Shown one piece after another: positions 9,718-31,852 of a stretch of DNA of 32,000 nt. How positions within the stretch are numbered: the first letter of the stretch is position 1; each line of letters opens with the position of its first letter. The stretch is from assembly GCF_002310835.1 (NCBI RefSeq), contig NZ_CP011041.1, positions 2,100,001-2,132,000 on the forward strand, given 5' to 3'. A model generated the notes under the pieces. It had not been told where the DNA came from and made no database searches. It saw nothing but the letters and a program-made list of their open reading frames with translations. Made by a program: the position numbers and the translations under genes. Source of the stretch: Pseudoalteromonas tetraodonis (GTDB lineage Bacteria > Pseudomonadota > Gammaproteobacteria > Enterobacterales > Alteromonadaceae).

Positions 9718-9756
9718 AGCCAGCTTAACTTTATGAGTTGAAATTTGTTTAGTTCG

Positions 9757-9777: not shown

Positions 9778-9824
9778 TGTATCTACGTAATATAACTTAA
9801 CGCAGAGCAGCTTACAGCTGCCCT

Positions 9825-11291: not shown

Positions 11292-11313
11292 AGTTTAAAA
11301 TAAGCACACTATA

Positions 11314-11337
11314 AGGCTACCAAGGGTAGCCTTTTTT
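11314..11337 (+). terminator. Rho-independent terminator after queC
   Basis: AGGCTACC (11314-11321) / GGTAGCCT (11325-11332), 3-nt loop, then a T-run. Confidence 0.75.
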
Positions 11338-11351
11338 AGTATGAAAAAACA

Positions 11352-11801
11352 TTAAAGCCAGCGTTTTACCCGCGATTTGTAATCCTCAAATTGCTCACCA
11401 AATAACTGATGTAACGCCCGCTCTTCGGGAATGATTTGAAACAGCGTTAAATAACCAACGTAGCCCACAATACCTAAAAAAGCCCAAATAGAGCTTAGCC
11501 ACACGCCCCACCCCGCCAGTATAAAAGCAAAGCCTAAATACATAGGGTTACGTGAGAGTTTATATACCCCTGAGGTAACTAAGCTTGTTGCTTGCTCAGG
11601 TTTATTTGGTAGTACCGTGGTTTTGGCTAAACGAAAACTGACGACCCCAGCAATACAAAAGAAACAACCTATGCCGACTAATCCTAATGCTAGGTAAGTT
11701 ATGAAGGCGGTAAAGTCTATTACTGTGTAATGCGCAATCAGTGCCATAACAGCAGCGAAAAATACCACAACGACAACCGGTGGAATTTTATTATTTAACA
11801 T
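11352..11801 (-). CDS. Isoprenylcysteine carboxyl methyltransferase (ICMT/PEMT) family membrane protein
   Basis: 149 aa with 4 TM segments, a RNPMYLG motif and a C-terminal EE..L...FG..F..Y pattern typical of this family. Confidence 0.7.
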   Translation of the reverse strand: MLNNKIPPVVVVVFFAAVMALIAHYTVIDFTAFITYLALGLVGIGCFFCIAGVVSFRLAKTTVLPNKPEQATSLVTSGVYKLSRNPMYLGFAFILAGWGVWLSSIWAFLGIVGYVGYLTLFQIIPEERALHQLFGEQFEDYKSRVKRWL

Positions 11802-11966
11802 ACCTATTCCTTGTATCGATTAAAAAAACTACATGGTTACTATATGGTGGCGGCACAAATAATAACAATGACTTTATAAATACAAATAAAGTTACAATTT
11901 ATTGCCTTTATCGGCGCTTAATTATGGTTATAATTTAAACTTAAAATAAAATTAAAGGAAGTAATT

Positions 11967-12209
11967 ATGTCTGGCACAACAATGATAGTTCTCATTGTAC
12001 TTATTTCTGTAGGTTCGGGGGTTATTTACGATATGTATAAAAAGCACCTTGAATTTAAACATAAAGTTCAAGACAACAATCAAGATGCTCATAAGCAACT
12101 AGCAGAAGTAACCGCGCAAGTGACTGAACTCAAACAGCGAGTACAAACACTTGAAGCCATTGTTACCGACTCAAGCTATAGCGTAAAACAAGAAATAAAC
12201 AAACTATAG
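11967..12209 (+). CDS. Small single-pass membrane protein with a C-terminal coiled coil (PspB-like architecture)
   Basis: 80 aa with AGGAAG RBS upstream. An N-terminal TM segment is followed by LKQRVQTLEAIVTD, reminiscent of E. coli PspB RIQALESILD. No pspA or pspC is adjacent, so I assign no symbol. Confidence 0.45.
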   Translation: MSGTTMIVLIVLISVGSGVIYDMYKKHLEFKHKVQDNNQDAHKQLAEVTAQVTELKQRVQTLEAIVTDSSYSVKQEINKL

Positions 12210-12220
12210 CCGTCCCTTAG

Positions 12221-13234
12221 TTATAAATAATTAGGGTATAAATGTGCATTTTCTGGCTGCTCTATACCATGGGCAGCTAAAAACCCGCCAATGGCTTGTC
12301 CACACCCTTGGGGTGCCCTGCCGCTGTCTATTTCAAAGTTTAACTGATTCGCCTCTTGCTTACCCATAGAACATAAACTAACTGAACTGGGTGAACGCAT
12401 GGCAATGCTTAGCTCCCCTACCTGCTCTGCGTGTACATCTTTACTAAAGCGCGCAAAGCCTCGGTATTTAAAATGCTCACTCACATACTCGTTACTTACA
12501 GCAACCAGTGCGGCAATAAAGCTATGTAAAAAGCTGTTGGTTGTTGCATCAGGTGCTAAAAATGACAAGGTTTTATTATTAAATTCGCTTAGCTGACAAC
12601 TATCGCAATGAAGTTTAACCGTATACACCTGCTCGCCGGTGATTATGGCTTGGCAGTTAATTAGCGCAATTTTATTATCCGCAAACACCAGGCGCTCTAT
12701 CAGGTCGTTCAATGAAATATTTTTAAACGATGTGCTTTTAACAAGCTCAGGGTTTTGCGCCATAACAGGTAAATCATGATGATTATTAAACGGCGTGCTG
12801 GTTGCGCCTTGATGCTGCAGCTGAAAAAGCTCTCTTACTTCATGCTCGCGTGCCACTTTCAATGCTAAAAATGCTGTTTGAATAAGCTCTGAGGTTGGCA
12901 AATTTTGCTCTACTGGCCAGCGACGACCAAACAGTAACTTTTTTGCTTTGTTCTCAGCACGGTAATTATCTGGACTAAGTACCGCCACTTGCAGATAAAT
13001 ATCACTGTTTTTTTCTGCAGCTAACACACTAAAGTGGGTAGAAAAACTAATGTCGTTAAGCACTTCATTAACGCTGGCTAGCGTATGTTTGTAACGTAAA
13101 AAATGCTGGGGAACAATCCAGTTATTATTGGCCAGTTGTACTAACGGCGCATACGAAATCGGTTGCTCGTAACTGTGTTGCCACTTTTGCCCATCGCCTA
13201 ATAATGGCTCAATTTTTATATTTTTATCTGACAT
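12221..13234 (-). CDS. Hypothetical protein (337 aa), no recognisable domain
   Basis: A long uninterrupted ORF, convergent with the small membrane protein with only 11 nt between their stops. I cannot place it in a family from sequence. Confidence 0.55.
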   Translation of the reverse strand: MSDKNIKIEPLLGDGQKWQHSYEQPISYAPLVQLANNNWIVPQHFLRYKHTLASVNEVLNDISFSTHFSVLAAEKNSDIYLQVAVLSPDNYRAENKAKKLLFGRRWPVEQNLPTSELIQTAFLALKVAREHEVRELFQLQHQGATSTPFNNHHDLPVMAQNPELVKSTSFKNISLNDLIERLVFADNKIALINCQAIITGEQVYTVKLHCDSCQLSEFNNKTLSFLAPDATTNSFLHSFIAALVAVSNEYVSEHFKYRGFARFSKDVHAEQVGELSIAMRSPSSVSLCSMGKQEANQLNFEIDSGRAPQGCGQAIGGFLAAHGIEQPENAHLYPNYL

Positions 13235-13328
13235 ATATAAACCAAATAAATCCGCCTGATGGCAAGATATTAACTATGAAGCACTTTACGTAGTTAATCA
13301 CAAAAACCGATCACACTGACAGGAGTAT

Positions 13329-13994
13329 TTAGCATTCAAATACTCGTTGATACTCTGTTATAACTTTTTGATAGTAAAGTCTATCTTTATTGAGCATTCG
13401 AGTATAATGGTTAAGCAATTGCTGCTGATATTGATGATGTTGTGGATTGTGTTTATCCCACATTTGAGCACCGGTTTGAGTGAGTGTTTGGCTGGCATTT
13501 ACACTAACGTGTAATACTTCGTAAAAACGTTTGTTTTCAACAATAATTTGCTCGTTTTCGAGCTTTAAATTACAGGCTTTTAAACCTTCGCGCACTTTGT
13601 AAAGATGCTGAATGGGGCAAATAATAAAACTGAGTTGGTGCAAGCTTTGCGGGTTGTTGGCAATAATTTGTTCAATAAGCTTTAAACATAAATCGCCCCC
13701 CACACCAGCAATAACCACCACTTGCTTTGCAGCTGTTGGCAATTTAATTTGCGCAACATCTTCGCAGCGCACTTGCCATGAAGGTAAAGATTTACCTTGC
13801 TCAAATTGTTGCAGCGACTGTTCGAGCGCTTCCATTAATGTTGGAATAATATCCACAAAATTTATATGTTTTGCTATACCGCGCTCAAGTAACGCCATCC
13901 CTAAAAAGCCATGATCGCAGCAACAATCCCAAACAATATCGTAAGGCTCTGTAATTAATGAATTGATGGCGTTTAAACGTTTACTCAGTTTCAT
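13329..13994 (-). CDS. TrmK-like tRNA (adenine-N1)-methyltransferase family protein (class I SAM MTase)
   Basis: The N-terminus MKLSKRLNAINSLI...DCCCDHGFLGMALLERG resembles TrmK/DUF633 (MKLSKRL...D.GSDH..L). It is the last gene of the uvrB operon. Confidence 0.6.
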   Translation of the reverse strand: MKLSKRLNAINSLITEPYDIVWDCCCDHGFLGMALLERGIAKHINFVDIIPTLMEALEQSLQQFEQGKSLPSWQVRCEDVAQIKLPTAAKQVVVIAGVGGDLCLKLIEQIIANNPQSLHQLSFIICPIQHLYKVREGLKACNLKLENEQIIVENKRFYEVLHVSVNASQTLTQTGAQMWDKHNPQHHQYQQQLLNHYTRMLNKDRLYYQKVITEYQRVFEC

Positions 13995-14002
13995 TTAACT
14001 CA

Positions 14003-14932
14003 CTATGTTTTTGTTTTGTACACCAATGCTTTTAAGCTTTTATCGCTATCAATTTCAATAAAGCGATCAGTCGGTTCTAGGCGTTTAACAAACTCAATAG
14101 CACCTTGAGTATGTTCTTGAATAAGTGCTTTAAAGTCGTTTTCTGAAAGCTCTGGGCTATTAGCGCATAACAACAGCTGTGTAGTATCGTTTAAAAGCTC
14201 AGGAAGTCTGCGCAGCACTTTTTGGTAGTCTTTTGTTAATATAAAACTGCCTTTTTGAAAGCTGGGTGGATCAACAATAATTAAATCAAACGGTGCGGCT
14301 TTTTTTAGCTTACCAAACGACTTTAAAATATCATGCGGTAAAAAACTGACGCCCCTATCAACATTGTTTAATTGATGGTTTTGCTTACCGACTTTTAACA
14401 CGCCTTTGCTCATATCCATGTTCATCACATGATCGGCACCGCCGTGCATAGCCGCTACCGAAAAACCACAAGTATAAGAAAACAGGTTAAGTACTTTGGC
14501 GTGTTTACTATTTTGCATGACAAACTCACGGCCTTTTCGCATATCTGGAAAAATACCGGTGTTTTGCTTACTCATTAAATCAACCAAAAAACGCACACCA
14601 TTTTCGGCTACGCTATGGCGCGCGGGCAATTGCCCGTGAACAAGGGTGTTATGGCTTTGTAGCCCCGCTCGCTGCTGATACACCAATGCAGTAATTAGCT
14701 CTGGATGATGTTGTTGTGCCCACTGCCATAATGTATCGGTGAGCGTAGTGAGTGTTACCTCATCAATTTCACTGTATGACACCAAAAACAAACTCGGTGG
14801 ATAAAAGTCTAAGTTAATATGGCTTAGCGCTTCTACGCTGTGGCCGCGACCATGAAATACGCGGCATAATTCGTTATCTGCAAAAGGCGTGTCTGCTAAT
14901 GCATTAATAAGAGGAGTAAAATCGATTGTCAT
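14003..14932 (-). CDS. Class I SAM-dependent methyltransferase, RlmI/RlmK-type catalytic domain (no PUA domain)
   Basis: VLNLFSYTCGFSVAA (motif I) and DLIIVDPPSF (motif IV, DPP). Its ATG directly abuts the uvrB TAA (TAAATG). Confidence 0.7.
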   Translation of the reverse strand: MTIDFTPLINALADTPFADNELCRVFHGRGHSVEALSHINLDFYPPSLFLVSYSEIDEVTLTTLTDTLWQWAQQHHPELITALVYQQRAGLQSHNTLVHGQLPARHSVAENGVRFLVDLMSKQNTGIFPDMRKGREFVMQNSKHAKVLNLFSYTCGFSVAAMHGGADHVMNMDMSKGVLKVGKQNHQLNNVDRGVSFLPHDILKSFGKLKKAAPFDLIIVDPPSFQKGSFILTKDYQKVLRRLPELLNDTTQLLLCANSPELSENDFKALIQEHTQGAIEFVKRLEPTDRFIEIDSDKSLKALVYKTKT

Positions 14933-16927
14933 TTAATTAATCAACTGTTGTTGTAGTTCATGTATTTCATCGCGTACAGAGGCGGCTTTTTCAAATTCTA
15001 AATCACTGGCGTAGGCATGCATTTTGGTTTCAAGCTGCTTAATTTGCGTGGCAATTTCTTTCGCACTAAGAATTTTTTTAGACTCTTTACGAATAAGCTG
15101 TAAGTTATCTTGTGGTGAAGCATCTTCACCTACATCCATTACATCGAGTATCTTTTTGATCAGTGCTTTAGGCTCAATACCGTGCTTAACATTATAAGCA
15201 TGCTGTATATCGCGGCGTCGCTGGGTTTCATCAATGGCTTTGGCCATCGACTTAGTGATTCTATCACCGTATAAAATAGCACGACCATCAAGGTGGCGCG
15301 CAGCACGGCCTATGGTTTGAATAAGCGAGCGAGCTGAGCGTAAAAAGCCTTCTTTATCGGCATCTAAAATAGCTACTAATGCCACTTCTGGCATATCTAA
15401 ACCTTCACGTAGTAAGTTAATGCCTACTAACACATCAAACACACCGGCACGTAAATCACGAATAATTTCGACCCGCTCTACGGTGTCTATGTCAGAGTGT
15501 AAATAGCGTACTTTTACATTATGTTCGCTTAAATAATCAGTTAAATCCTCAGCCATGCGTTTGGTCAGTGTTGTTACTAACACGCGCTCGCCTTTTTCAA
15601 CACTTTTATAAATTTCTGAGAGTAAGTCATCAACCTGATCGCCAACCGGGCGCACTTCTATTAATGGGTCAAGTAAGCCGGTTGGACGAATAACTTGTTC
15701 AGCAACCTCGCCATTGCTGCGCTCTAATTCAAAATCACCCGGTGTGGCCGACACATAAATAGTTTGCGGTGCAATGGCTTCAAATTCTTCAAAACGCAGT
15801 GGACGGTTATCCATGGCCGAGGGCATTCTAAAACCGTATTCAACGAGGTTTTCTTTACGACTTCTATCGCCTTTATACATAGCGCCAATTTGCGAGACAG
15901 TTACGTGCGATTCATCAATAATCATTAATGCATCGTCGGGTAAATAATCGAGTAATGTTGGCGGTGGATCACCAGGTGTACGCCCCGATAAGTAACGACT
16001 GTAGTTTTCAATGCCTGAGCAATAACCAAGCTCGGTCATCATTTCTATGTCGTATTGGGTACGCTGCGCAATACGTTGCTCTTCAACTAATTTATTAGCG
16101 CTGAGTAATTGTGCCCTGCGCTCTTTAAGCTCAACTTTTATTTTTTCGATGGCTTCGAGTATTTTTTCTCGTGGCGTTACATAGTGAGTTTTAGGGTAAA
16201 TAGTTGCACGCACTATATGTTTTTCAACAGCACCAGTGAGGGGGTCAAAAATACTTAGGCGTTCAACTTCATCATCAAACATTTCTACACGTACTGCATA
16301 GGTATCTGATTCAGCGGGAAATATATCCACCACTTCGCCGCGAACACGATATGTACCACGACTAAAATCAATATCGTTACGGGTGTATTGCAGCTCTGCA
16401 AGGCGGCGCAGCATATCGCGCTGGTCGACTTTTTCGCCCACTTTTAAAAGCAGCATCATTTTCATGTATGAATCAGGATCGCCCAGACCATAAATCGCCG
16501 ATACCGACGCAACGATTATGGTATCGCGACGCTCTAACAGCGCTTTAGTGGCGCTGAGCCGCATTTGCTCAATGTGTTCATTGATGGATGCATCTTTTTC
16601 AATAAAGGTGTCGCTGGCTACCACGTAGGCTTCTGGTTGGTAGTAATCGTAGTAAGATACAAAGTACTCAACTGCATTATGCGGGAAAAATTCTTTCATC
16701 TCGCCGTATAATTGCGCCGCTAAGGTTTTATTGTGCGCCATAATAATAGTGGGGCGATTTAAATCACTAATGATGTTAGCCATCGTGAAGGTTTTTCCCG
16801 TCCCTGTTGCGCCCAATAAGGTTTGATGAGCAAGCCCTGCTTCTAAACCTTCGCACAACTGAGCGATAGCGGTAGGCTGATCCCCAGCGGGTTTAAATTT
16901 TGATTCTAACTGAAAATGATCGCTCAA
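14933..16927 (-). CDS. uvrB: Excinuclease ABC subunit B
   Basis: 664 aa, collinear with E. coli UvrB from residue 1 ([14 protein letters not shown]...[12 protein letters not shown]), with helicase motifs and a C-terminal UVR domain. The start codon is TTG (16927-16925), preceded by AGGAG, and it overlaps the stop of the upstream MATE gene (cATTGAgc). Confidence 0.97.
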
Positions 16928-18303
16928 TGACTACACTCCTGTAATGCTTGACTGCTTAACGCTTCAATTTCTTTCATAAACCACTTATAGGCTACAAGGG
17001 CTGTGAATAAATTACCAATGGCCGCGCCAATAAACAAGCCGATTAAACCTGCCAGTTCATTCCCGATATACGCAAAGGGAACATAAAAAATAAATAACCG
17101 AATTACGCTCAAAACTAAGGCGTTCATGGGTTTGTGTAAAGCGTTAAACGAGGAGTTGGATAAAATGATCACTCCTTGCAAGCCATAACTTAATGGGATG
17201 GTATAAATAAACAGTTTTATGACATCAACAACGGCTTGCTCCTTACCAAATATTTCACTGATGACGCCTGAGAACATAATTAATAAAATATAAATAACAA
17301 ACTGCCATAACATCACAAATTTTAAGGTTCCTAGGTAGGCATCCTTTACGCGAAAAAAATGACTGGCTCCAAAGTTTTGACTAATAAAAGGTGGCAAAGT
17401 CATCGATAATGCTAATACCACCAAACTCGCTATTGATTCTATTCGACTCCCTACTCCAAAAGCAGCCACAGCCTCTGGACCATGATGTGCAACCAATGCT
17501 GTCATTACTGCCATAGCAACCGGTGTTAGCATGTTAGCACCTGCTGCGGGTAAGCCTATTTTTAATATTTTACGAATAGCTCCAATAACCGTTTGCGACC
17601 CTGCTTTTAAACTCAATAAGCGCTTTTTAGCAATTAATAAGTATAAAATAATTGCCACAGCAACTGCCCATGCTATAACACTGGCGATGGCGGCTCCTTT
17701 AATGCCAAACGCAGGAATGGGGCCAAAACCAAAAATAAGTACAGGATCGAGTACCGCATTGATAAGCCCCGCTCCACCCATAATAATACTCGGTGTTTTA
17801 GTATCGCCACTGGCACGCAGTACAGAATTACCAATCATCGGGGTAATTAAAAATACACTGCCTAAAAACCAAATACTGATATATTCATGAATGAGCGGTA
17901 ATACTTGCTCCCCAGCTCCGAGTAAAGTAAAAATAGGATCAATTAATAAATAGCCACACGCAGATAAAACCAACACTAATACCACCGCAATCAACAACGA
18001 TATACTGGCATCAAAACGCGCTTCTTCAATATTGTTACTGCCTAATGCTTTTGCTATTACCGCTGAGGTACCTATGCCTAAACCAATCGCTAAACTAATA
18101 ACGGTAAAAGTGACGGGAAATGTAAAGCTCACTGCAGCAAGCGGCTCAGTACCCAATAAGCTAATGAAAAAAGTATCAACTATGTTGAACATCATTAGGG
18201 TGATCATCCCAAAGATCATCGGAATGGTCATTTTCTTTAATGTAGGCAAGATTGGGGCGGTGAGTAAATCAGGGCGAGTATGTGATTGAGAATGTGCGCG
18301 CAT
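16924..18303 (-). CDS. MATE family efflux transporter
   Basis: 459 aa with about 12 TM segments. The N-terminal [27 protein letters not shown] and repeated-half topology are typical of MATE/NorM-type proteins. Confidence 0.85.
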
Positions 18304-22173: not shown

Positions 22174-22755
22174 ATGACAGAATACGTCTTGTTATTAATT
22201 GGAACAGTGTTAGTCAACAACTTTGTATTAGTACAATTTTTAGGCCTTTGCCCGTTTATGGGCGTGTCGGGGAAACTTGATACAGCCATAGGTATGTCTT
22301 TGGCAACCACCTTTGTGCTAACGCTTGCCTCTGTGACAAGCTATTTAGTAAATGAGTATATTTTATTACCATTGGATATTACCTATCTGAAAACAATGAG
22401 CTTTATTTTAGTAATAGCTGTTGTTGTACAATTTACTGAAATGGTTGTCAGAAAAACCAGTCCAACGCTTTACCGGTTACTGGGAATATTTTTACCTTTA
22501 ATAACCACCAACTGTGCGGTACTTGGTGTTGCTTTATTAAATATCAAAGAAGATCACACGTTTTTACAATCGGCCGTTTATGGCTTTGGTGCTGCGGTGG
22601 GTTTTTCATTAGTATTGGTTTTATTTGCTGCATTGCGCGAACGTTTAGCCGCAGCAGACGTACCAACCCCATTTAAAGGTGCCTCAATCGCAATGATAAC
22701 GGCAGGTTTAATGTCAATGGCCTTCATGGGTTTTACTGGATTAGTGAAGTTTTAA
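22174..22755 (+). CDS. rnfA: Rnf/Rsx electron transport complex subunit A
   Basis: 193 aa; [32 protein letters not shown] is canonical RnfA. It is the first gene of a contiguous rnfABCDGE cluster. Confidence 0.95.
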
Positions 22756-22756
22756 T

Positions 22757-23311
22757 ATGACCTTGTTGTACGCTTTAATAGCGCTGGGTTTGCTGGCGTT
22801 AATTTTCGGATTAATTTTAGGGTTTGCAGCAGTACGCTTTCGAGTAGAAGGTAATCCTGTTGTAGAACAAATCGACACCATTTTACCGCAAACACAATGC
22901 GGCCAATGTGGTTACCCTGGCTGTCGTCCTTATGCAGAAGCCATTGCCAATGGCGATGAAATAAATAAATGCCCTCCAGGTGGTGAAGCGACCGTTAAAA
23001 AGCTAGCTGATTTAATGGGGGTTGAGGCTAACCCCCTCGCTGGCGGCGAACAAGCAGATCCGGTTAAAACAGTGGCGTATATCCGCGAAGATGAATGTAT
23101 TGGCTGTACTAAATGTATTCAAGCCTGCCCTGTTGATGCGATTGTGGGTGCAACACGTCAAATGCATACCGTTCTAATTGACGAATGCACTGGCTGCGAT
23201 TTGTGCGTTGAACCTTGTCCGGTCGATTGTATTGACATGCTACCTGTTGCACCAACAAAACAAACCTGGAAATGGCAATTAGACGCTATTCCTGTTACCC
23301 AAATAGATTAG
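22757..23311 (+). CDS. rnfB: Rnf complex subunit B (Fe-S)
   Basis: N-terminal TM segment, [15 protein letters not shown] motif, and two CxxCxxCxxxCP ferredoxin motifs. Confidence 0.95.
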
Positions 23312-23319
23312 AGGTTTGA

Positions 23320-25710
23320 GTGGAAAAGTTACTTGAACAAATAAAAAAAGGCACCGTTTGGGCATTTCCTGGCGGCGTACATCCTCCTCAGCAGAAATCA
23401 TTATCTAATAGTGCGCCTATAGCCAGACTCCCTTTGCCTGAAAAACTTGTTCTGCCTTTAAAGCAGCACATTGGCGCTAGTGGTAAATTAATAGTTGAAA
23501 AAAACCAGCACGTCTTAAAAGGCCAAGCGTTAACAAAGCCATCAGCTAATTGGTCGGTGCCAATACATGCACCGACTTCCGGCACTATTATTGATATTAC
23601 GCCTATGCCGTCGGCGCACCCTTCGGCATTACCTGAATTAAGCATTATTATTGAGCCCGATGGCAACGATACCTGGTGTGAATTATCGCCTTTAGCAAAC
23701 CCAGCCACTGCATCACACGATGAACTGGTTGATGTTATTCATAATGCGGGTATTTCTGGTATGGGCGGCGCAGGCTTCCCAACCTATGTAAAAGCTGATA
23801 TTAAACAACCTATTGAATTTTTGATTGTTAATGCGGTTGAGTGTGAACCTTACATCACGGCTGACGATACCTTAATGCGTGAGCACGCCGCTGAAATAGT
23901 CAAAGGTATTGAGCTAATGCAGCAGTTACTTAATCCGACGCTGTGTATTATTGGTATTGAAGACAATAAGCCCGAGGCTATCACAGCCATGACAGAAGCG
24001 GCGAATCATAACGAGCATATCTTAATACAAACCGTGCCTACTGTTTACCCTTCTGGCGGTGAAAAACAGCTAATAAAACTGCTCACTAACCGTGAAGTAC
24101 CAAACGGCGGTATCCCAGCTGATATCGGCATTTTAGTACATAACACCGGCACTTTATTTGCGATACAGCAAGCTGTATACGAAGGTAAACCGTTAATTGA
24201 ACGTGTCGTTACCGTTACCGGCAATACTATACATAATCCTGGCAATGTATGGGCGTTATTAGGTACTGAAATTAAGCACTTACTTGATTGCCAAGGTTTT
24301 TCACCGGTGCCACAACAACGCGTGGTCATGGGCGGCCCTATGATGGGCTTTACCTTACCCACAGTTCGTATTGGCGTTGTTAAAACAACAAACTGCATAC
24401 TTGCCCCAGATCATAAGGAATTAGCAGAGCCTGGCCCAGAAAAAGCCTGTATTCGCTGCAGTGCCTGTGCCGATGCCTGCCCTGCCTCGTTATTGCCACA
24501 ACAATTACAATGGTTTGCTAAATCAAAAGAATACGACAAACTCCAAGAGCATAACTTATTTGACTGTATTGAATGTGGTGCCTGTGCCTATGTATGCCCT
24601 AGTGAAATACCACTTGTTCAGTATTATCGCGTTGCAAAAGTTGAAATTAAAGAGCAAATTGCCGAGAAGATAAAATCAGATCGCGCTAAAGAGCGCTTTG
24701 ATGCACGTAAAGCGCGTTTAGAGCAAGAACAAGCTGAGCGAAAAAATCGCCATAAACGTAAACCTGCCCCTAAATCGACCGAAGAGCAGCAAAAAGTAGC
24801 CGATGCCCTTGCCCGCGTTAAAGATAAAACTAGCGATGGTGACAATAAATCAGCTGTAGCAGCGGCAATTGCGCGCGCTAAAGCGAAAAAGCAAGGTGGC
24901 GAACTCGAGCCAGATAACAGTGAAGTTGCAAAAGAGCGCGCAGCACGTAAAGAACAAGCTCGCCTTTACAAAGAGCAAAAGGCACAAAATAATGGTGATG
25001 ACGAGCCTGTAGATGATAAAAAATCAGCCGTTGCTGCCGCTATTGCCCGTGCTAAAGCCAAAAAAGCAGCACAAGCCAATGAACAAGCGCAAAGTGATGA
25101 CACAGAAAGTGAATCGCCAGTCGCTGCCGATGATAAAAAAGCCGCGGTAGCTGCTGCTATCGCCCGTGCAAAAGCTAAAAAGGCAGCACAAGCAAATGAG
25201 CAGACAGCAACTGATGACACTGCAAGTGAATCTCCAGTTGCTGCAGATGATAAAAAAGCTGCCGTCGCTGCCGCTATTGCCCGTGCTAAAGCCAAAAAAG
25301 CAGCACAAGCAAATGAGCAAGCAGTAAGTGATGACGCAGTAAGTGAATCACCTGTCGCTGCCGATGATAAAAAAGCTGCCGTCGCTGCCGCCATTGCCCG
25401 TGCTAAAGCCAAAAAAGCAGCACAAGCTGCTGAGCAAACACAAAGCGATGACGCAATAAGTGAATCACCTGTCGCCGCCGATGATAAAAAAGCCGCCGTG
25501 GCTGCCGCTATTGCCCGTGCTAAAGCCAAAAAAGCAGCACAGGCTGATGAATTAGCAAAACAAAGTGAAAACACTGAGCCACAAAGCAACGATGAATCTT
25601 CAGAAGGCTCACAGCAAACAGCTCAAGAAAAAAAGAAAGCCGCCGTAGCCGCCGCTATTGCTCGCGCTAAAGCTAAAAAGCAACAAAAAGAAGGAAATGA
25701 TCAGTCATGA
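23320..25710 (+). CDS. rnfC: Rnf complex subunit C with an expanded repetitive Ala/Lys-rich C-terminal tail
   Basis: GTG start with GAGG upstream. SGMGGAGFPT NADH/FMN-type motif and two 4Fe-4S motifs (CIRCSACADACP, CIECGACAYVCP). The last roughly 330 aa are low-complexity and contain 7 copies of (A/S)AVAAAIARAKAKK. Confidence 0.93.
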   Translation: MEKLLEQIKKGTVWAFPGGVHPPQQKSLSNSAPIARLPLPEKLVLPLKQHIGASGKLIVEKNQHVLKGQALTKPSANWSVPIHAPTSGTIIDITPMPSAHPSALPELSIIIEPDGNDTWCELSPLANPATASHDELVDVIHNAGISGMGGAGFPTYVKADIKQPIEFLIVNAVECEPYITADDTLMREHAAEIVKGIELMQQLLNPTLCIIGIEDNKPEAITAMTEAANHNEHILIQTVPTVYPSGGEKQLIKLLTNREVPNGGIPADIGILVHNTGTLFAIQQAVYEGKPLIERVVTVTGNTIHNPGNVWALLGTEIKHLLDCQGFSPVPQQRVVMGGPMMGFTLPTVRIGVVKTTNCILAPDHKELAEPGPEKACIRCSACADACPASLLPQQLQWFAKSKEYDKLQEHNLFDCIECGACAYVCPSEIPLVQYYRVAKVEIKEQIAEKIKSDRAKERFDARKARLEQEQAERKNRHKRKPAPKSTEEQQKVADALARVKDKTSDGDNKSAVAAAIARAKAKKQGGELEPDNSEVAKERAARKEQARLYKEQKAQNNGDDEPVDDKKSAVAAAIARAKAKKAAQANEQAQSDDTESESPVAADDKKAAVAAAIARAKAKKAAQANEQTATDDTASESPVAADDKKAAVAAAIARAKAKKAAQANEQAVSDDAVSESPVAADDKKAAVAAAIARAKAKKAAQAAEQTQSDDAISESPVAADDKKAAVAAAIARAKAKKAAQADELAKQSENTEPQSNDESSEGSQQTAQEKKKAAVAAAIARAKAKKQQKEGNDQS
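25012..25545 (+). repeat. In-frame 117-bp (39-aa) tandem repeat inside rnfC: four full units plus a partial fifth
   Basis: Unit starts (GATGATAAAAAA...) are at 25012, 25129, 25246, 25363 and 25480, exactly 117 nt apart. The unit encodes DDKKAAVAAAIARAKAKKAAQANEQxxxDDxxSESPVAA. Diverged single motifs lie at about 24847 and about 25630. Confidence 0.9.
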
Positions 25711-26765
25711 AACTAACCATGGCCAGTTCACCCCACAATCATAGTCACAAATCTGTGACACGTTTAATGTTAACTGTGATTGCGGCCTGTATTCCTGGTG
25801 TTATTGCACAAGTTGTATTTTTTGGTACCGGTGTACTTATCCAATTATTATTAGCGTTAGTGTGTGTAAGCGCATTTGAAGCAGCCATTATGCTAATGCG
25901 TAAGCGCCCTATCTGGCCTTCATTAAGCGATGGCAGCGCATGGCTAACCGGCGTGCTATTAGCGATTAGTGTTCCGCCTTTAGCGCCGTGGTGGGTTATT
26001 GTTATAGGATGTTTGTTTGCCATTGTTATTGTTAAGCAACTTTATGGTGGTTTAGGCTTTAATTTATTTAACCCTGCAATGGCAGCTTATGTACTTTTAT
26101 TAGTGTCGTTCCCTGTGCAAATGACGGCCTGGTTACCCGTTACAGAGTTACTCAATACGGGCATTACTTTTAGCCAGCAACTTAGTCTAATATTTAGCGA
26201 CTTTACAACTCTTGGATATAGCTTAGATCAGCTCAGAGTGGGTATTGATGGCAGCACAATGGCCACCCCTCTTGATACCTTAAAAACAGATATTGCTCAT
26301 AGTCTTACCGTCACTGAAAGTATGCAAAAACCGGTATTTAATGAATGGGTAGGCCTAGGTTGGGGTTGGGTTAATTTAGCCTTTTTACTTGGTGGCCTTT
26401 ATTTATTAAAAACGAAAGTGATTAACTGGCATATACCAGTGAGTTTTATTGCCAGTTTAAGCCTATGCGCTGCAATTGGTTATATTGCCTCGCCAGGCAC
26501 TGAGCCGGGTCTGGTATTTCACTTATTTAGTGGTGCGACTATGCTGGGAGCCTTTTTTATCGCCACCGATCCTGTATCAGCTACGACCACTAATCGAGGC
26601 CGCCTTATTTATGGTGCCGCGATTGGTTTAATTGTGTATTTAATTCGTACATTTGGTGGCTTTCCGGATGCCGTTGCATTTGCCGTATTACTGATCAATA
26701 TTGCAGTTCCGCTTATTGATTACTACACACAACCAAGAACCTATGGCCATGGAGCAGTAAAATGA
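25707..26765 (+). CDS. rnfD: Rnf complex subunit D
   Basis: 352 aa polytopic membrane protein with ATGA overlap with rnfC. It carries the FMN-attachment region (GSTMATPLD) and typical RnfD/NqrB sequence. Confidence 0.95.
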   Translation: MKLTMASSPHNHSHKSVTRLMLTVIAACIPGVIAQVVFFGTGVLIQLLLALVCVSAFEAAIMLMRKRPIWPSLSDGSAWLTGVLLAISVPPLAPWWVIVIGCLFAIVIVKQLYGGLGFNLFNPAMAAYVLLLVSFPVQMTAWLPVTELLNTGITFSQQLSLIFSDFTTLGYSLDQLRVGIDGSTMATPLDTLKTDIAHSLTVTESMQKPVFNEWVGLGWGWVNLAFLLGGLYLLKTKVINWHIPVSFIASLSLCAAIGYIASPGTEPGLVFHLFSGATMLGAFFIATDPVSATTTNRGRLIYGAAIGLIVYLIRTFGGFPDAVAFAVLLINIAVPLIDYYTQPRTYGHGAVK

Positions 26766-27400
26766 TTATTTCTTCAATGGTAAAAAATGGCGCAATATTA
26801 TGCGGCTTCGCACTCCTTACAACAGGGTTAGTGGCCACCATAAACTCGTTAACGGCCGATAAGATTGCAGAGCAAGAGCAACTGCAATTAACTAATCAGT
26901 TACAAGAAGTATTACCGCACAGCAAGTACACTAATGAACTTTCTCAAGATTGTGTGATTATATCAGACCCTTTACTTGGGCCATACGACAACCAAGTAAT
27001 TTACCGTGCACGTAAAGATGACGAGCCCGTTGCATTAGTCATTCGTCATGTCACTCCTAGCGGCTACAGTGGCGATATAAACTTGCTTAGCGCGGTATAT
27101 CGCGATGGCAGCGTTGCTGGTGTAAGGGTTACTAAGCATGAAGAAACCCCTGGTTTGGGCGATAAAGTCGAAATTAAAAAGTCAGACTGGATCACCTCAT
27201 TTAATTCAAAAACAGTACAAAGCGAAAGTGACGCGCGTTGGGCCGTTAAAAAAGATGGCGGTCAGTTTGATCAATTTACTGGCGCAACCATTACGCCTCG
27301 CGCCGTTGTTGGCTCAGTTAAAAATGCGGTAGTGTATGCACAAAATAACTTTGATGATCTTTTTGCAGCAGCGAATGCTTGCCCTGAGGTAACACCATGA
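26762..27400 (+). CDS. rnfG: Rnf complex subunit G (FMN-binding)
   Basis: N-terminal anchor, FMN_bind motif [14 protein letters not shown], and ATGA overlap with rnfD. Confidence 0.92.
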
Positions 27401-28095
27401 GTGAATTAAAAACCCTTTACAAAGAAGGCTTATGGGGAAATAACCCCGCCTTAGTACAGTTATTAGGTTTATGTCCTTTACTTGCTGTTACCTCCACGAT
27501 TACTAATGCGCTAGGTTTAGGCTTAGCAACCTTGTTAGTTTTAGTGGGCTCTAATATTACCGTATCATTTGTGCGCAATTGGGTGCCTAAAGATATCAGA
27601 ATACCGGTTTTTGTAATGATCATTGCCGGTTTTGTGACGATTGTGCAGCTGTTAATGAACGCCTACACTTTTGGCCTTTATCAATCTTTAGGGATTTTCA
27701 TTCCGTTGATTGTGACTAACTGCGCCATTATTGGTCGTGCTGAAGCATTTGCCTCTAAAAATCCAGTGCATTTATCTGCCTTTGATGGCTTGATGATGGG
27801 CTTAGGCTTTATGCTGGTACTAGTTGTACTTGGCGCTATGCGAGAGCTGATTGGCCAAGGCACCTTATTCGATGGCGCCGATTTATTACTCGGTCCTTGG
27901 GCTTCAGCTTTACGCATCGAAGTATTTAGCTTTGATAGCCAGTTTTTACTGGCCATTTTACCACCAGGCGCATTCTTAGGGCTTGGGCTGCTGATCGCCG
28001 CTAAAAACGTCATTGATGCACAAATAAAATCAAAACAAGTAACGCCGCCAGAAGCTGAAAAAGGCCCACGTGCACGTGTTACTAGCTTAACTTAA
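27397..28095 (+). CDS. rnfE: Rnf complex subunit E
   Basis: 232 aa; [16 protein letters not shown] and [11 protein letters not shown] motifs (RnfA/E family). ATGA overlap with rnfG. Confidence 0.95.
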
Positions 28096-28100
28096 GGGGA

Positions 28101-28132
28101 AAACGCATTAACTGAATAAAGCTAATGCGTTT
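28101..28132 (+). terminator. Hairpin between rnfE and nth (possible partial terminator or processing site)
   Basis: AAACGCATTA (28101-28110) / TAATGCGTTT (28123-28132): a 10-bp stem with a 12-nt loop and only a short T-run. nth starts 9 nt later, so read-through is likely. Confidence 0.4.
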
Positions 28133-28140
28133 TAAGTTAC

Positions 28141-28773
28141 ATGAATAAAGAAAAACGTCACCAAATACTCACGCGCTTACGCGACGACAACCCACATCCT
28201 GAAACGGAGCTTGAATACTCAAGCCCGTTTGAGTTACTAGTTGCCGTTACGCTCTCTGCACAAGCCACCGATGTTGGGGTAAATAAAGCCACCCGAAAAC
28301 TCTTTCCAGTGGCAAACACACCGCAAGCTATTTTAGATATTGGCCACGACACACTGCGTGATTATATAAAAACCATCGGGTTGTTTAATTCCAAAGCTGC
28401 GAACGTATACAAAATGTGCCAAATATTGGTAGATCAGCATAACGGTGAAGTGCCAGAGAATCGTGAAGCCCTAGAAGCCCTTCCTGGCGTTGGCCGTAAA
28501 ACTGCTAACGTAGTATTAAATACAGCCTTCGGCTGGCCGACAATTGCAGTTGATACGCATATTTTCCGTGTATCAAACCGTACTAAACTTGCTATGGGTA
28601 AAGACGTGGTTGCGGTTGAGCAAAAGCTCGAAAAGGTGATCCCTAAAGAATTTAAAGTCGATGTACACCACTGGCTGATACTGCATGGTCGTTATGTTTG
28701 TACAGCCCGCAAACCAAAATGCGGCAGTTGTATAATTGAAGATTTGTGTGAGTTTAAAGATAAGACTGAGTAA
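28141..28773 (+). CDS. nth: Endonuclease III (DNA glycosylase/AP lyase)
   Basis: 210 aa with LVAVTLSAQATD, the HhH-GPD region (LPGVGRKTANVVLN...D), and the C-terminal 4Fe-4S loop CTARKPKCGSCIIEDLC. The position after rnfE matches E. coli rsx-nth. Confidence 0.95.
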   Translation: MNKEKRHQILTRLRDDNPHPETELEYSSPFELLVAVTLSAQATDVGVNKATRKLFPVANTPQAILDIGHDTLRDYIKTIGLFNSKAANVYKMCQILVDQHNGEVPENREALEALPGVGRKTANVVLNTAFGWPTIAVDTHIFRVSNRTKLAMGKDVVAVEQKLEKVIPKEFKVDVHHWLILHGRYVCTARKPKCGSCIIEDLCEFKDKTE

Positions 28774-29009
28774 TGTTTAGACTGCTTTGATACGATAACG
28801 GACATTAGCATCAATAGTTTTCAGAGATATTTTTAGTATCCATTAAACGTAGAGCTATCATCATCTTGACAGTCAACTAAGCCGCCACATTGATCATATA
28901 AACTTTAATTAAAAACACCAGTAGAAACTAAGACTTCACTTTAGAATTCATTACTCTAAGATATATAACCCTAATCATAATGAAATAAGGCAATACGTTT
29001 TCTATTATT

Positions 29010-29717
29010 ATGAAAAATCTATTATCCATCCGCTCCTATAGCACAAAGCCAGTTCGTCACTCACATCAATTTAATCAGTTGGTTCTACCTTTACGTGGTG
29101 TCATAAATATATGTGTTGGTGATTTCAATGGAAAAGTTGCACCAAGTGAATGTGTTGTAGTTAAAGCCAACGAAGAGCACCTGTTCACTGCAAACACTGA
29201 AGCTAGGTTTGTAGTCGTAGATATGAAAAATCTTCCGCTAAATATTTCATCTTCACAATGTATTGTTTTTGCAATTAACTCATCTCTTAGAAGTTACTTA
29301 ACTTTTATCGAAAACCAACTAGAAAACAAAGTTAATGCTCAATTAGAACAGGCGATGTTCGAAATGTTCAGCTTACTGCTGGCAGAGCAAACTTTATTAC
29401 CAAAGGTAGATAGTCGCATTGGTACAGCAATATCCTTCATAGAGCAAAATATTGCAGAGCAGCTTCAAATTAAATGTTTAGCTGAATCTGCTTTCCTGAG
29501 TGAAACACAGTTTAAGAAACTATTTAAAATACAAACAGGTATGACCGTGATGAAGTACGTAACAAAACTTCGAATGGAAAAAGCCCAAGCATTACTTACG
29601 CATACAGATTATCCGTTACCAATTATTGGTGAAAAAGTAGGTTATAAAGAACCCTCAGCCTTTAGCCGAAAGTTTTCACAATACTTTGGTCTATCACCAA
29701 CTAAATTCAAAAAGTAA
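29010..29717 (+). CDS. AraC family transcriptional regulator (cupin-like N-terminal domain plus HTH_18)
   Basis: The C-terminal dual HTH (FLSETQFKKLFKIQTGMTVMKYVTKLRMEKAQALL...IGEKVGYKEPSAFSRKFSQYFGLSPTKFK) is the canonical AraC/XylS signature. Confidence 0.85.
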   Translation: MKNLLSIRSYSTKPVRHSHQFNQLVLPLRGVINICVGDFNGKVAPSECVVVKANEEHLFTANTEARFVVVDMKNLPLNISSSQCIVFAINSSLRSYLTFIENQLENKVNAQLEQAMFEMFSLLLAEQTLLPKVDSRIGTAISFIEQNIAEQLQIKCLAESAFLSETQFKKLFKIQTGMTVMKYVTKLRMEKAQALLTHTDYPLPIIGEKVGYKEPSAFSRKFSQYFGLSPTKFKK

Positions 29718-29818
29718 ACTTAGTCGGAATTGTTAACTATTGCGTCTTAATTGTTAAAAACACCCTACATAATTAGCATACTATTTCTATATTGAAGTTA
29801 TTATAAATAAGTCTCATT

Positions 29819-30721
29819 GTGGAAAATCATCACGGAAGTTTTAAAGGTGTAATGGCGATTATTGTTGCTAGTTTCTTGTGGGGGACAACTGGTACTGCTG
29901 CAAGCTACTCCCCAGATGTAAGCTCTTTGGCTATTGGTGCATTCTCTATGGGGATAGGAGGAGTGTTACTTGTAATCACAGCTCGAAAAAAGCTACTTAT
30001 AGATTATAAGCTGATGCTCGAACAGCCTAAAATATTTCTCTTAGGTGTCGCTTCTGTCGCTATTTACCCATTAGCATTCTATACCTCAATGCGCTTATCA
30101 GGTGTTGCCATTGGTACTGTAGTATCTATAGCCACTGCACCTTTTTTTGCTGGAATCCTTGAACGTCTTATTAGCAAAAAGGACATTTCATTGCAATGGA
30201 TGTTGAGCTTTGTCATTGGTGCTATAGGTATTGCTCTGTTAACTTTAGGTAAAGACCAGAGTAATAATAATGCTTACAGTATCAATCAACAGGGTTTGGG
30301 GATTATTTTAGGTTGTATTGCTGGTTTAACTTATGCAGGTTATTCATGGGCGGCAAGGTGTTTAATTGAAAGTGGCGTTCACTCAACATCGTCCATGTCT
30401 GGGCTATTCGGTTGTGCTGCACTATTGTTACTTCCTTCATTATGGTTTACGGGTGATAACTTATTTTCAAGTTCATCTAATGCTTTCGTATCTTTATATA
30501 TGGCAATAATTCCAATGTTTTTAGGATATTTATTATTTGGTTTTGGCTTGAATTATATAGATGCAAGTAAAGCGACATTAATCACCTTAATTGAACCATT
30601 AGTTGCAACTGTTTTAGCTATAGTCATTATTGGGGAAAAATTTAAAGTAATAGGTTGGGCAGGCGTAGCTTTAGTATCACTATGCCTATTGATGCAAACA
30701 ATCAAACCTCAAAAAAACTAA
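29819..30721 (+). CDS. EamA/DMT-superfamily transporter
   Basis: About 10 TM segments in two EamA-like halves. The ORF begins at GTG 29819; ATG 29852 (MAIIVASFLWG, AAGGTG upstream) is a plausible true start. Confidence 0.85.
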   Translation: MENHHGSFKGVMAIIVASFLWGTTGTAASYSPDVSSLAIGAFSMGIGGVLLVITARKKLLIDYKLMLEQPKIFLLGVASVAIYPLAFYTSMRLSGVAIGTVVSIATAPFFAGILERLISKKDISLQWMLSFVIGAIGIALLTLGKDQSNNNAYSINQQGLGIILGCIAGLTYAGYSWAARCLIESGVHSTSSMSGLFGCAALLLLPSLWFTGDNLFSSSSNAFVSLYMAIIPMFLGYLLFGFGLNYIDASKATLITLIEPLVATVLAIVIIGEKFKVIGWAGVALVSLCLLMQTIKPQKN

Positions 30722-30850
30722 GGTTAGCCGTCAAAACAATGTAGATATATAGCCCTAAATATGCTCCTGAATTTGCTAAGGCTTAATGTCAGCATATGGC
30801 TAAAAGCAGTCCATAGGTTTTCCTTTTGCTATCTACCTTAATTATCTTTT

Positions 30851-31093
30851 GGCTGGCCGACTATCGCGGTAGACACGCATATTTTTCGTGTATCTAACCG
30901 TACCAAGCTTGCCATGGGTAAAGACGTGGTAGCGGTTGAGCAAAAGCTCGAAAAAGTGATCCCCAAAGAATTTAAAGTAGACGTGCACCACTGGCTCATT
31001 TTACATGGACGTTATACCTGTGTGGCGCGAAAGCCAAAGTGTGGCAGCTGTATTATTGAAGATTTATGTGAGTTTAAAGATAAGACTGAATAG
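30851..31093 (+). pseudogene. nth: Orphan 3' fragment of an nth allele (last 80 codons plus stop), with no 5' part
   Basis: It aligns without gaps to nth 28531-28773, with about 37 mismatches in 243 nt by hand count. The translation GWPTIAVDTHIFRVSNRTKLAMGKDVVAVEQKLEKVIPKEFKVDVHHWLILHGRYTCVARKPKCGSCIIEDLCEFKDKTE* differs from Nth only at two residues. Similarity continues about 36 nt past the stop (31094-31128 vs 28774-28809). Confidence 0.85.
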
Positions 31094-31297
31094 CTCCCAC
31101 CTGTTAAGATACGAAAGCGTACCTTAGCTTTGGCTTACCCAGTGTCATGTTGCGACATCGCTGGCTTAAGTTGTGTCGATTTCCACCCAAAAAAGAACAG
31201 ATAGGTAGCAAACTGATCTTTTAAATAAATTAACCACAAGATGTGCTTAGTAACTGTCTTCAGTAAATTAATGTTACATCTATATTCTTGCAGGGGG

Positions 31298-31852
31298 TTA
31301 TGAAGCAACCCCACTCTTGAACGATAAAAAAGCTAAATGTGCTGCCTTACCTGAACTGTAATTATCTAGATGACTCATCTTGTAACCTGCGTACAATAAA
31401 CCTTCAAAAAAATAAAAACCCCAATCAACACAGAAGTGCTTACTTAATAACCCCTCATCTTTCGCAAGTTTTATCAATTCTCGTATCTCGTTATCTTGCT
31501 GTTGTATACGAACTTGAAGCTTTTCACTTTTCTGAAACATCTTCTCGAATTTTTGCAAAAAAGCGAATTCCTCGTATAACGGCAAAGTATTTTCGAATAC
31601 AAGCCTAATAGCATCCAATGAGTCTTTAGCTTTATTTTCAACGGACATATTTACTTCATCAAAGCGGTCTAAACAATATAACGCAATCTCTTCTTGAAGC
31701 GCTTCCTTATGCTTAAATTGGCGGTACACCGTTGCTCTACCAACTTCAGCCCTTTTAGCCACGTCAACTAGCGTTGAGTCCTCGTTTTGAATAAACAGTT
31801 TTAACCCCGATTGAATAATTTTTTTTCTCGAATTATTTGTTCTTGCATCCAT
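31298..31852 (-). CDS. TetR/AcrR family transcriptional regulator
   Basis: 184 aa with an N-terminal HTH (IIQSGLKLFIQNEDSTLVDVAKRAEVGRATVYRQFKHKEAL). Confidence 0.85.
   Translation of the reverse strand: MDARTNNSRKKIIQSGLKLFIQNEDSTLVDVAKRAEVGRATVYRQFKHKEALQEEIALYCLDRFDEVNMSVENKAKDSLDAIRLVFENTLPLYEEFAFLQKFEKMFQKSEKLQVRIQQQDNEIRELIKLAKDEGLLSKHFCVDWGFYFFEGLLYAGYKMSHLDNYSSGKAAHLAFLSFKSGVAS

Follow-up and report, generated by a model that had tools for sequence, protein, structure and literature searches.

How did the 3′ end of a DNA repair gene come to stand twice in the chromosome of Pseudoalteromonas tetraodonis, on either side of a regulator gene and a transporter gene, with no recombinase nearby? 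The gene is nth, encoding endonuclease III, which lies downstream of rnfABCDGE in a 32,000-nt stretch of NZ_CP011041.1 (positions 2,100,001–2,132,000; the window) whose sequence matches CP152390.1; the same locus is present in Pseudoalteromonas sp. SM9913. The answer that we favor, with a probability of about 80%, is that window positions 28531–30850 are a 2,320-bp nonautonomous integrative cassette lodged in the attachment site of a family of large serine recombinase (LSR) elements that target nth codons 131–134. This reading accounts for a puzzling island scar in a DNA repair gene without a recombinase.

The nth repeat and its empty site

The window nth (28141–28773, + strand) is intact and encodes a protein of 210 aa that scores 294.5 bits against TIGR01083 (cut-off 211.7) and 392.7 bits against NF007978, under that model's cut-off of 405; with the Pfam domains HhH-GPD, HHH, and EndIII_4Fe-2S, it belongs to the endonuclease III family. 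The original prediction, made from the sequence of the window, held that the last 243 nt of this gene recur downstream in the same orientation and frame, and this was borne out. Compared without gaps, 28531–28773 (copy A) and 30851–31093 (copy B), both on the + strand, differ at 37 of 243 positions (84.8% identity), and a repeat finder returned the pair as 28528–28772 and 30848–31092 (85% identity, spacing 2320). The mismatches fall at 32 third, three first, and two second codon positions, and the two 80-aa translations differ at two residues only (RYVCTARKP/RYTCVARKP). The Nei-Gojobori estimates (dN = 0.022, dS = 1.34) agree with the claim that the divergence is almost purely synonymous. Similarity also continues past both stop codons, as had been noticed, with 17 of 21 positions matching between GATACGATAACGGACATTAGC (28789–28809, + strand) and GATACGAAAGCGTACCTTAGC (31108–31128, + strand).

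The DNA between the repeats (28774–30850) is more AT-rich than its surroundings, as had been suspected (GC content of 35.2% versus 43.9% in rnfA–nth, 22174–28773), and Pfam assignments confirmed that it codes only for an AraC-family transcriptional regulator and an EamA/DMT transporter. The regulator gene (29010–29717, + strand, 235 aa) matches HTH_18 (2.5e-20) and HTH_AraC (4e-12) and has no NCBIfam equivalog at cut-off; an identical protein is listed under 252 blocks of the sequence collection. The transporter gene (29819–30721, + strand) encodes 300 aa from a GTG start, or 289–297 aa from the later starts that differ by gene caller, and matches Pfam EamA and, below cut-off, TIGR00950 (8.5e-36). 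In terminator and promoter scans, the cassette, including its post-stop element, showed no signal above background.

The comparison that carries most of the argument is with L117, a conspecific metagenomic contig from a closely related strain, found by scanning metagenome contigs for junction patterns (L-numbers are labels of fetched loci and contigs; L001 is the window plus 10 kb downstream). L117 and the window have identical RnfE proteins (100%), upstream DNA that is 96–97% identical, and rnfC genes of different length. In L117, the TetR gene follows nth directly, without the AraC-EamA pair; the nth 5′ part is identical to that of the window at 390/390 positions, the intact nth 3′ end is identical to copy B at 243/243 positions and just 84.8% identical to copy A, and the 907 nt after nth are 99.9% identical to the window's downstream DNA. 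The original prediction had proposed a search for an empty site among relatives, and, on this sequence comparison, we read L117 as the empty site of the window cassette. The window equals L117 plus a precise 2,320-bp unit (28531–30850) consisting of copy A, the AraC gene, the EamA gene, and a 20-nt end motif. The crossover falls within GGCTGGCCGAC (nth codons 131–134), the only sequence common to both junctions: at the left junction (28531–28541, + strand), native nth runs seamlessly into the core GGCTGGCC(GAC), whose 11 nt are all that the two junctions and the empty site have in common, and the first mismatch that is diagnostic of copy A or copy B lies 11 nt past the core start. Because 11 shared bases are too few for a RecA exchange, for k-mer mis-assembly, or for assembly collapse, we take the difference between the window and L117 to be a site-specific event. 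A second, independent pair of occupied and empty sites is formed by L018 and L017: the last nth fragment and flank of the former match the intact 3′ end and flank of the latter, with homology beginning ≤3 nt from the core.

The same comparison indicates which copy is foreign. Because the L117 3′ end is identical to copy B at every position and only 84.8% identical to copy A, copy A (80 codons plus stop), which is missing from L117 and lies within the inserted unit, is an imported replacement end and copy B the displaced native end; the window nth is a chimera of a native 5′ part (28141–28530) and an imported 3′ end. Signature residues agree with this assignment: the closest relatives share TCV with copy B, and their 3′ ends are 88–90% identical to it but 85% identical to copy A, whose VCT is found in more distant Pseudoalteromonas. 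The post-stop elements follow suit, GATACGAAAGCGTACCTTAGC occupying the corresponding position behind the intact nth in L117, and GATACGATAACGGACATTAGC being cassette-borne, inside a block ∼100% identical to L012; a related copy of GATACGATAACGGACATTAGC occurs near position 6960 of L063. The predicted order of gene 5′ part, replacement 3′ end, cargo, and displaced 3′ end is therefore exact, and it recurs in many genomes. The replacement 3′ end brought by the cassette keeps nth intact, and the breakpoint, which had been said to spare the gene, coincides with a conserved attachment site.

A tandem duplication of the nth 3′ end that arose and became fixed long ago, with unrelated genes entering later, could be argued from the presence of the same arrangement in 10/10 contigs encoding the identical Nth protein. 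It is refuted by the conspecific empty site. Moreover, copy B is the functional allele of L117, the differences between the copies are almost only synonymous, and arrangement and cargo vary from species to species, as opposed to the identical duplicated arrangement in all relatives that the original prediction had named as the sign of such a duplication. We consider this explanation to have practically no chance of being correct.

End motif, attachment sites, and the serine recombinase

The original prediction reported neither a recombinase nor terminal repeats in the window. The first statement stood: no integrase, transposase, or serine recombinase was found in the window by Pfam scans of the open reading frames (ORFs) in 1–18300, by precomputed Pfam assignments for the remainder, or by tblastn with an LSR. 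The second has to be corrected, for the right end of the cassette is a specific 20-nt motif, ATCTACCTTAATTATCTTTT (30831–30850, + strand). This motif, ATCTACCTTnATTATCTTTT, is not derived from nth and stands immediately 5′ of nearly every displaced nth fragment, with GGCTGGCC next to it; in the window it occurs at 30831–30850 only (0.03 matches expected by chance). The 45 motif junctions in the fetched loci (43 distinct sequences) have the consensus ATCTAc.TT.aTTATCtTTt, conserved over exactly 20 nt and with an information content of ∼0 immediately upstream, and they come from Pseudoalteromonas, Thalassotalea, Colwellia, Paraglaciecola, Aliiglaciecola, Alteromonas, Psychrosphaera, and Neiella (Alteromonadales). 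The motif is always on the nth strand, except in genomes (L063, L072, and L086) that hold its exact inverse complement in frame inside nth, right after GGCTGGCT. The 82 intact nth sites have the consensus TTt-GGCTGGCC-.ACcAT.GC.GT.GAcAC.

From the two kinds of junction, an attP site can be reconstructed as motif–GGCTGGCY–inverted motif, a near-perfect palindrome with two 20-nt arms. Inverse-complement arms around GGCTGGCY are found in L118, L120, L121, and L128, and a joined P-core-P′ site is found in L112. The window cassette has the core and a P arm only (30831–30850), which we read as the recombinase-proximal attP half-site; its left end is a seamless nth core without a P′ arm, which leaves the cassette with one of the two canonical hybrid sites, the shared crossover region is 11 nt, and copy B, starting with the core GGCTGGCC, forms an attR-like junction. 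In both the P and P′ arms, 14 nt separate the hexamer GTAGAT from the core, as against 10 nt in the right arm of nth; this offset presumably resembles the half-site register shift between attP and attB described for serine integrases. Viral contigs scanned with the junction patterns contained no free or phage-borne attP, and blastn of the junction against plasmids and phages returned ordinary nth genes only.

Two further observations concern these sites. The metagenome contig L112 (UZWX01004604, ∼4230–4290 in nth orientation) holds the full attP-like sequence, motif–GGCTGGCT–inverted motif, inside a cassette array, with a divergent nth 3′ end next to it; this joined site could be the product expected of cassette insertion into an occupied attL. 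In the window, the last codons of nth (TTTAAAGATAAG) hold AAAGATAA (28753–28760), the inverse complement of TTATCTTT in the motif (30843–30850), which gives the exchanged unit inverted ends of 8 nt. The match, which goes no further, is probably coincidental.

The enzyme that would use these sites is encoded beside them in relatives of the cassette. In three metagenome contigs (L118, L116, and L102), an ORF of 553–572 aa on the opposite strand abuts the motif and matches Pfam Resolvase (1e-14 to 1e-15) and Zn_ribbon_recom; in L119–L128 the recombinase was recognized by homology. Eleven loci, representing nine distinct elements, have an LSR of 552–572 aa whose start codon lies 45–70 nt from the motif, followed by the core and an nth 3′ fragment, and in these the recombinase gene thus adjoins the attachment site. 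Their hosts are Pseudoalteromonas, Shewanella, Lacimicrobium, Brumicola, and Vibrio cholerae, besides unassigned metagenome contigs. The LSR clade comprises ∼54 clusters at ≥49% identity, with next relatives at ≤42%, from Pseudoalteromonas, Shewanella, Paraglaciecola, Brumicola, Lacimicrobium, Thalassotalea, Aliiglaciecola, Saccharobesus, and V. cholerae; Arg-16, Ser-18, and four zinc-ribbon cysteines are invariant. A single-sequence search of the PDB with the recombinase gave no match, and only the clade profile reached solved serine integrases, namely SPbeta SprA/YokA (7.5e-5), phiC31, and TP901-1. Readings of the motif as a Xer/dif site, an integron attC, or part of a transposon with terminal inverted repeats and target-site duplication were dropped because the adjoining gene is a serine recombinase.

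Both ends are visible in four of these elements (L118, L120 of Lacimicrobium alkaliphilum, L121 of V. cholerae, and L128 of Shewanella avicenniae), and the order is the same in each: rnf and the nth 5′ part, GGCTGGCT, inverted motif, replacement 3′ end, ∼6–10 kb of cargo, recombinase, motif, GGCTGGCC, and displaced native 3′ end. In all four, the inverted motif is translated in frame, giving an Nth of 219–220 aa. The ∼9–10 extra residues (GW-LKDNEGRYFL-AVDTH), derived from the inverted attP arm, are found in Nth of L063 (site at 6394–6420), L072, L086, L118, L120, L121, and L128, and lie three residues before what we take to be the catalytic Asp of the AVDTH motif (Asp-138 in Escherichia coli). 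The autonomous relatives are prophage-like, mobilizable (Mob_Pre/VapE), or defense islands of ∼8–12 kb or more. L119 and L125 are of the prophage-like kind (S24 repressor, KilA-N, and HNH), and anti-phage cargo is present in L121/L122 (V. cholerae), L118, L086, L126, and L128. PADLOC models matched a helicase and DUF2290 pair (998 and 273 bits), a type II restriction-modification fusion, and a TIR/ThsB-like protein in such elements; type I and type III restriction-modification genes were assigned by Pfam annotation only. That a conserved site in nth is used by an LSR clade of autonomous relatives favors one of the two options left by the original prediction, nth as the attachment site of a decayed or trans-mobilized island, over the other, capture by homologous recombination.

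Neither the window nor the 10 kb further downstream in L001 encodes an LSR, and the window segment is a nonautonomous derivative rather than a complete LSR element. It might have become so in place, if a complete element had lost its recombinase by deletion and its inverted motif by gene conversion and were now a fixed relic. Secondary loss of this kind would fit the inverted-motif left junction of all complete LSR-bearing elements, the frequency of homologous recombination within nth, and the decay of distal nth fragments with array position (the third fragment of L001; 73, 64, and 62% in L042). However, no recombinase remnant was detected by tblastn, and just 110 nt separate the EamA stop codon from the motif. 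The compact, LSR-less 2.06-kb cargo occurs on cores that are 88% identical and behind different nth 3′ ends, which argues that it spread in its present form; the empty site in a conspecific is precise, and the 45 LSR-less junctions far outnumber the LSR-bearing elements. A decayed relic is therefore an unlikely account of the locus.

A cassette system that used the motif as the site of an integron-like, tyrosine-recombinase, or Xer-dependent enzyme would explain why small, promoter-poor accessory cassettes are arrayed beside a fixed site as in integrons. Against this, the enzyme adjoining the motif is a serine recombinase, no tyrosine recombinase is found among the families listed for 72 in-array ORFs or beside the motif, and the lone Phage_integrase (L123/L124) probably belongs to a separate insertion. 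On reading the site by eye, no GTTRRRY/attC or dif-like arms were seen, and the junction motif looks unrelated to attC core sites. We regard such a system as extremely improbable here.

Two side observations were made among the LSR-bearing loci. In L123 (8256–9581) and L124, both from Shewanella sp., three co-oriented genes lie past the nth fragment by the LSR, encoding a 441-aa Phage_integrase and proteins of 548 and 774 aa without a Pfam family; these genes may be part of another element nested in the nth hotspot. In L127 (Saccharobesus litoralis, CP026604.1), the nth fragment is ∼9.5 kb away from the recombinase gene, on the same strand (the reverse of the usual arrangement) and beyond a czc/RND metal-efflux cluster, so that L127 may be a rearranged or differently targeted element.

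Cassette arrays and reshuffling of nth segments

The window cassette does not stand alone. The native 3′ end has been pushed downstream, where it heads an older cassette beginning with a TetR-family regulator gene (31298–31852, − strand) at the end of the window, followed by a DUF418/acyltransferase gene whose first codons lie from 31942 on the + strand and which continues beyond the window. This older cassette closes with the same motif, the core, and a decayed nth fragment: at position 15006 of L001, ATCTACTTTTATTATCTTTC is followed by GGCTGGCC and a partial nth fragment. The full order in L001 is nth, AraC-EamA, copy B, TetR-DUF418 acyltransferase, a third, decayed nth fragment, and an ornithine/lysine-type decarboxylase gene (Pfam OKR_DC_1), the last of which is also found downstream of nth in the relative L011. 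The window locus is thus a two-cassette array running past the window end, with the tandem arrangement downstream of the target gene that characterizes SCC-type (staphylococcal cassette chromosome) elements; L012 has such an arrangement too. The original prediction is supported overall, and what it missed is the end motif, the array beyond the window, and the homologous reshuffling of nth segments considered below. At the site in L001 where the third, decayed nth fragment sits, between the DUF418 and decarboxylase genes, Pseudoalteromonas sp. SM9913 (L099, 10359–11561) has an insertion sequence of the Transposase_mut family.

To survey the hotspot, we fetched 80 species loci around nth, these being the best nth matches. 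Extra nth 3′ fragments lie downstream of the gene in ∼30 of the 80, often two to four in tandem and mostly starting at codons 125–133, and at least one clear motif-core junction is present in 18. The genera with extra fragments include Pseudoalteromonas, Thalassotalea, Colwellia, Paraglaciecola, Aliiglaciecola, Alteromonas, Psychrosphaera, Catenovulum, and Neiella. Array cargo segments are 0.9–4.7 kb long and hold one to four genes, encoding regulators (AraC six times, TetR, MarR, AsnC, and LytTR), β-lactamase-fold proteins, esterases, glutathione S-transferases, glyoxalases, and others. Among the 25 commonest of the 135 Pfam families matched by 72 in-array ORFs there was no recombinase, a sample that a singleton could escape; tblastn with the LSR on the window and the 80 species loci was also negative, which closes this gap for the LSR family. 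Integrase-sized ORFs adjoining nth in L063, L086, L043, L061, L062, and L081 turned out to encode RND efflux, TIR, two-component system, or β-lactamase-fold proteins or peptidases.

The cassette itself was also found elsewhere, in answer to a further proposal of the original prediction: in L012, the AraC-EamA cargo lies between nth segments and is itself ∼100% identical in nucleotide sequence, on a core just 88% identical, which indicates that the cargo spreads horizontally. L012 has an additional cassette between nth and AraC-EamA, and this fits the addition of new cassettes at the nth end. A 3.3-kb block that begins at the motif/nth fragment is 95% identical between Pseudoalteromonas ostreae (L016, 9351–12630) and Thalassotalea castellviae (L038, 7810–11089); by its sequence, it indicates that array segments were recently exchanged between distantly related genera.

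The nth segments have a history that differs from that of the cargo. In conspecifics (L091–L099) whose flanks and cargo are 98–100% identical, the nth 5′ part is 90–96%, copy A 84–96%, and copy B 88–100% identical, whereas rnfE just upstream is 98–100% identical. In copy B, the divergent tracts all have the core as their precise start, but their ends vary. The block in common with L012 spans positions 28747 (conserved nth tail) to 30861 (core) and ends in short stretches that are conserved in all nth alleles. The idea that the imported 3′ end always travels with the cargo was rejected because the cargo is ∼100% identical to that of L012 and the upstream nth segments are 79% identical. This mosaic is best explained by homologous recombination between conserved nth segments of different arrays or alleles, reshuffling them among strains. 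As a separate observation, recombination has a local hotspot in nth as a whole, the part 5′ of the core being hypervariable too.

Could homologous recombination have done everything? In such a capture, RecA would cross over through nth homology without any site-specific enzyme, either by Campbell-type integration of a circle carrying an nth 3′ fragment or by a double crossover via the nth 5′ part and a downstream fragment. The mosaic nth segments amid uniform flanks and cargo, the ends of the L012 block in universally conserved stretches, and the variable tract ends in copy B all speak for it. But the ends of the window/L117 indel share only GGCTGGCCGAC, with zero donor polymorphism in the 390 nt to the left and the 243 nt to the right; the 20-nt motif, foreign to nth, is conserved at 45 junctions across families, with no conservation of the adjacent upstream sequence; and a dedicated recombinase is encoded beside the motif in the autonomous relatives. 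Homologous recombination does not account for the precise core-to-core indel or for the motif, and, as the only process at work, we find it quite improbable.

Cassette movement and comparison with known systems

Under the explanation that we prefer, the window cassette, made up of core, imported nth 3′ end, short 3′ untranslated region, AraC regulator gene, EamA transporter gene, and 20-nt end motif, would be inserted (or excised) in trans by an LSR of the clade, brought in by a phage or island, with recombination pairing the motif-core site of the cassette with the core in nth. The seamless left junction makes the intact nth look like an unoccupied attachment site again, so that a usable site would be regenerated and cassettes would accrete beside nth. 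Homologous recombination between conserved nth segments would then shuffle those segments among strains. Mobilization in trans by the clade recombinase is the likeliest route for the cassette, though a proposal for which we see the chances as evenly divided. It is suggested by precedent, because recombinase-less ACME/COMER and defense cassettes are moved by the Ccr enzymes of SCCmec, and recombinase-less cassettes moved by a neighbor's LSR are described for SCC/ACME/COMER (PMC11470126) and for ECC (PMC6222049). In the sequences themselves, it is consistent with the precise empty site and with the near-identical cassette on a core 88% identical.

Several points weigh against the favored explanation. 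Within the part of the genome that was searched, the window and the 10 kb downstream, no LSR is present, so a trans-acting enzyme in this strain is hypothetical. The inverted motif marks the left junction in all four LSR-bearing elements with both ends visible, whereas the left junction of the window cassette and of all other LSR-less cassettes is seamless; to move, such cassettes would need recombination between a noncanonical pair of sites, motif-core-nth and nth-core-nth. To our knowledge, canonical serine integrases normally do not recombine such a pair. By sequence, the difference between L117 and the window could reflect either insertion or excision. One member of the clade, the recombinase of L127 (54% identity), has no motif or nth fragment adjoining it. 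The AraC-EamA cargo lies behind different nth 3′ ends depending on the strain (copy A is 79% identical to segment f1 of L012 and 84–96% identical among conspecifics), so that the imported 3′ end and the cargo are at times separated, and homologous recombination clearly contributes.

More speculatively, nth codon 131 might be an LSR-driven platform for cassette accretion, somewhat like that of an integron, in which cassettes with a single attP half-site move by the noncanonical motif-core-nth × nth-core-nth reaction and need no directionality factor. Each reaction would regenerate a functional nth and a fresh site, permitting open-ended stacking and the exchange of small adaptive gene sets between families, and autonomous phages and mobilizable and defense islands, which appear to tolerate the 10-residue insertion in Nth, would supply the enzyme. 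We put this forward tentatively and hold it to be rather doubtful. If recombinase-less cassettes do move by a noncanonical site pair, they would be a case from nature, beyond the staphylococcal SCC system, of serine integrases with a less stringent choice of sites.

Neither the type of enzyme, a serine integrase, nor the overall strategy of entering a housekeeping gene in its 3′ part, stacking cassettes in tandem, and carrying passengers without a recombinase is new, and the SCCmec/SCC-like and ECC elements, which integrate at the rlmH 3′ end by means of CcrAB, are the closest. They too integrate in the 3′ part of a housekeeping gene whose function is kept, employ large serine recombinases and att sites with dyad symmetry, form tandem arrays downstream of the target with highly variable cargo that includes defense genes, and comprise recombinase-less cassettes, which in SCC are mobilized by a neighbor's enzyme. 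In contrast, the nth family has one recombinase gene rather than a ccrA/ccrB pair, from a clade without a direct PDB match by single-sequence search; its target, codon 131, lies 80 codons before the stop, so that the replacement end is 243 nt instead of a few codons; its autonomous elements leave a translated, in-frame half-site (∼10 additional aa), whereas the far more numerous LSR-less cassettes are seamless at the left; and its hosts are marine Gammaproteobacteria.

Serine-integrase prophages and intervening elements such as phiC31, TP901-1, A118 in comK, SPbeta in spsM, and skin in sigK are comparable in having an enzyme with Resolvase and zinc-ribbon domains, an int gene beside attP, and a quasi-palindromic attP of ∼50 bp around a short crossover region, and some nth elements are prophage-like. 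Such known elements usually split and inactivate their target gene until excision. In the nth family, the function of the gene is preserved by the replacement 3′ end and recombinase-less derivatives abound in arrays; no recombination directionality factor was identified for nth elements. Integron arrays share with nth arrays small recombinase-less cassettes (0.9–4.7 kb) that each end in a recombination site, the newest apparently beside the fixed platform. The nth arrays differ from them in that no IntI, attI/attC hairpin sites, or common promoter platform is evident and that cassettes carry their own regulators; their recombinase, moreover, is of the serine type and does not reside at the platform. 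In the same order, the "additive" flexible genomic islands of Alteromonas at tRNA/tmRNA genes place near-identical cassettes in divergent species; their hotspots gather cassettes that vary in number and nature, and a directly repeated segment of the target gene marks each one (PMC4898812). Their targets are mostly tRNA/tmRNA genes, and nth has 0 occurrences in that paper, whereas the nth family combines a protein-coding target with a serine recombinase.

The literature that we searched, incomplete as such a search is, contained no description of nth or endonuclease III as a serine-recombinase target or integration site, which is absence of evidence only; the nth-targeting recombinase family and its arrays are apparently undescribed. 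The cargo of the window cassette, a regulator-transporter pair, is itself modest. Of wider interest are the hotspot, which is widespread, has defined sites, and extends to V. cholerae and Shewanella, and the LSR, whose attP of ∼48 bp and natural attB make it a candidate new serine integrase for genome engineering. As a possible hotspot for defense islands and accessory genes, nth may be worth including in island-prediction tools.

Upstream of nth, in rnfC (23320–25710), the C-terminal half of RnfC is a run of ∼39-aa repeats (…DDKKAAVAAAIARAKAKKAAQANEQ…). The length of RnfC varies among close strains (679, 775, 796, 797, 805, and 835 aa), and the repeats give self-matches in blastn.

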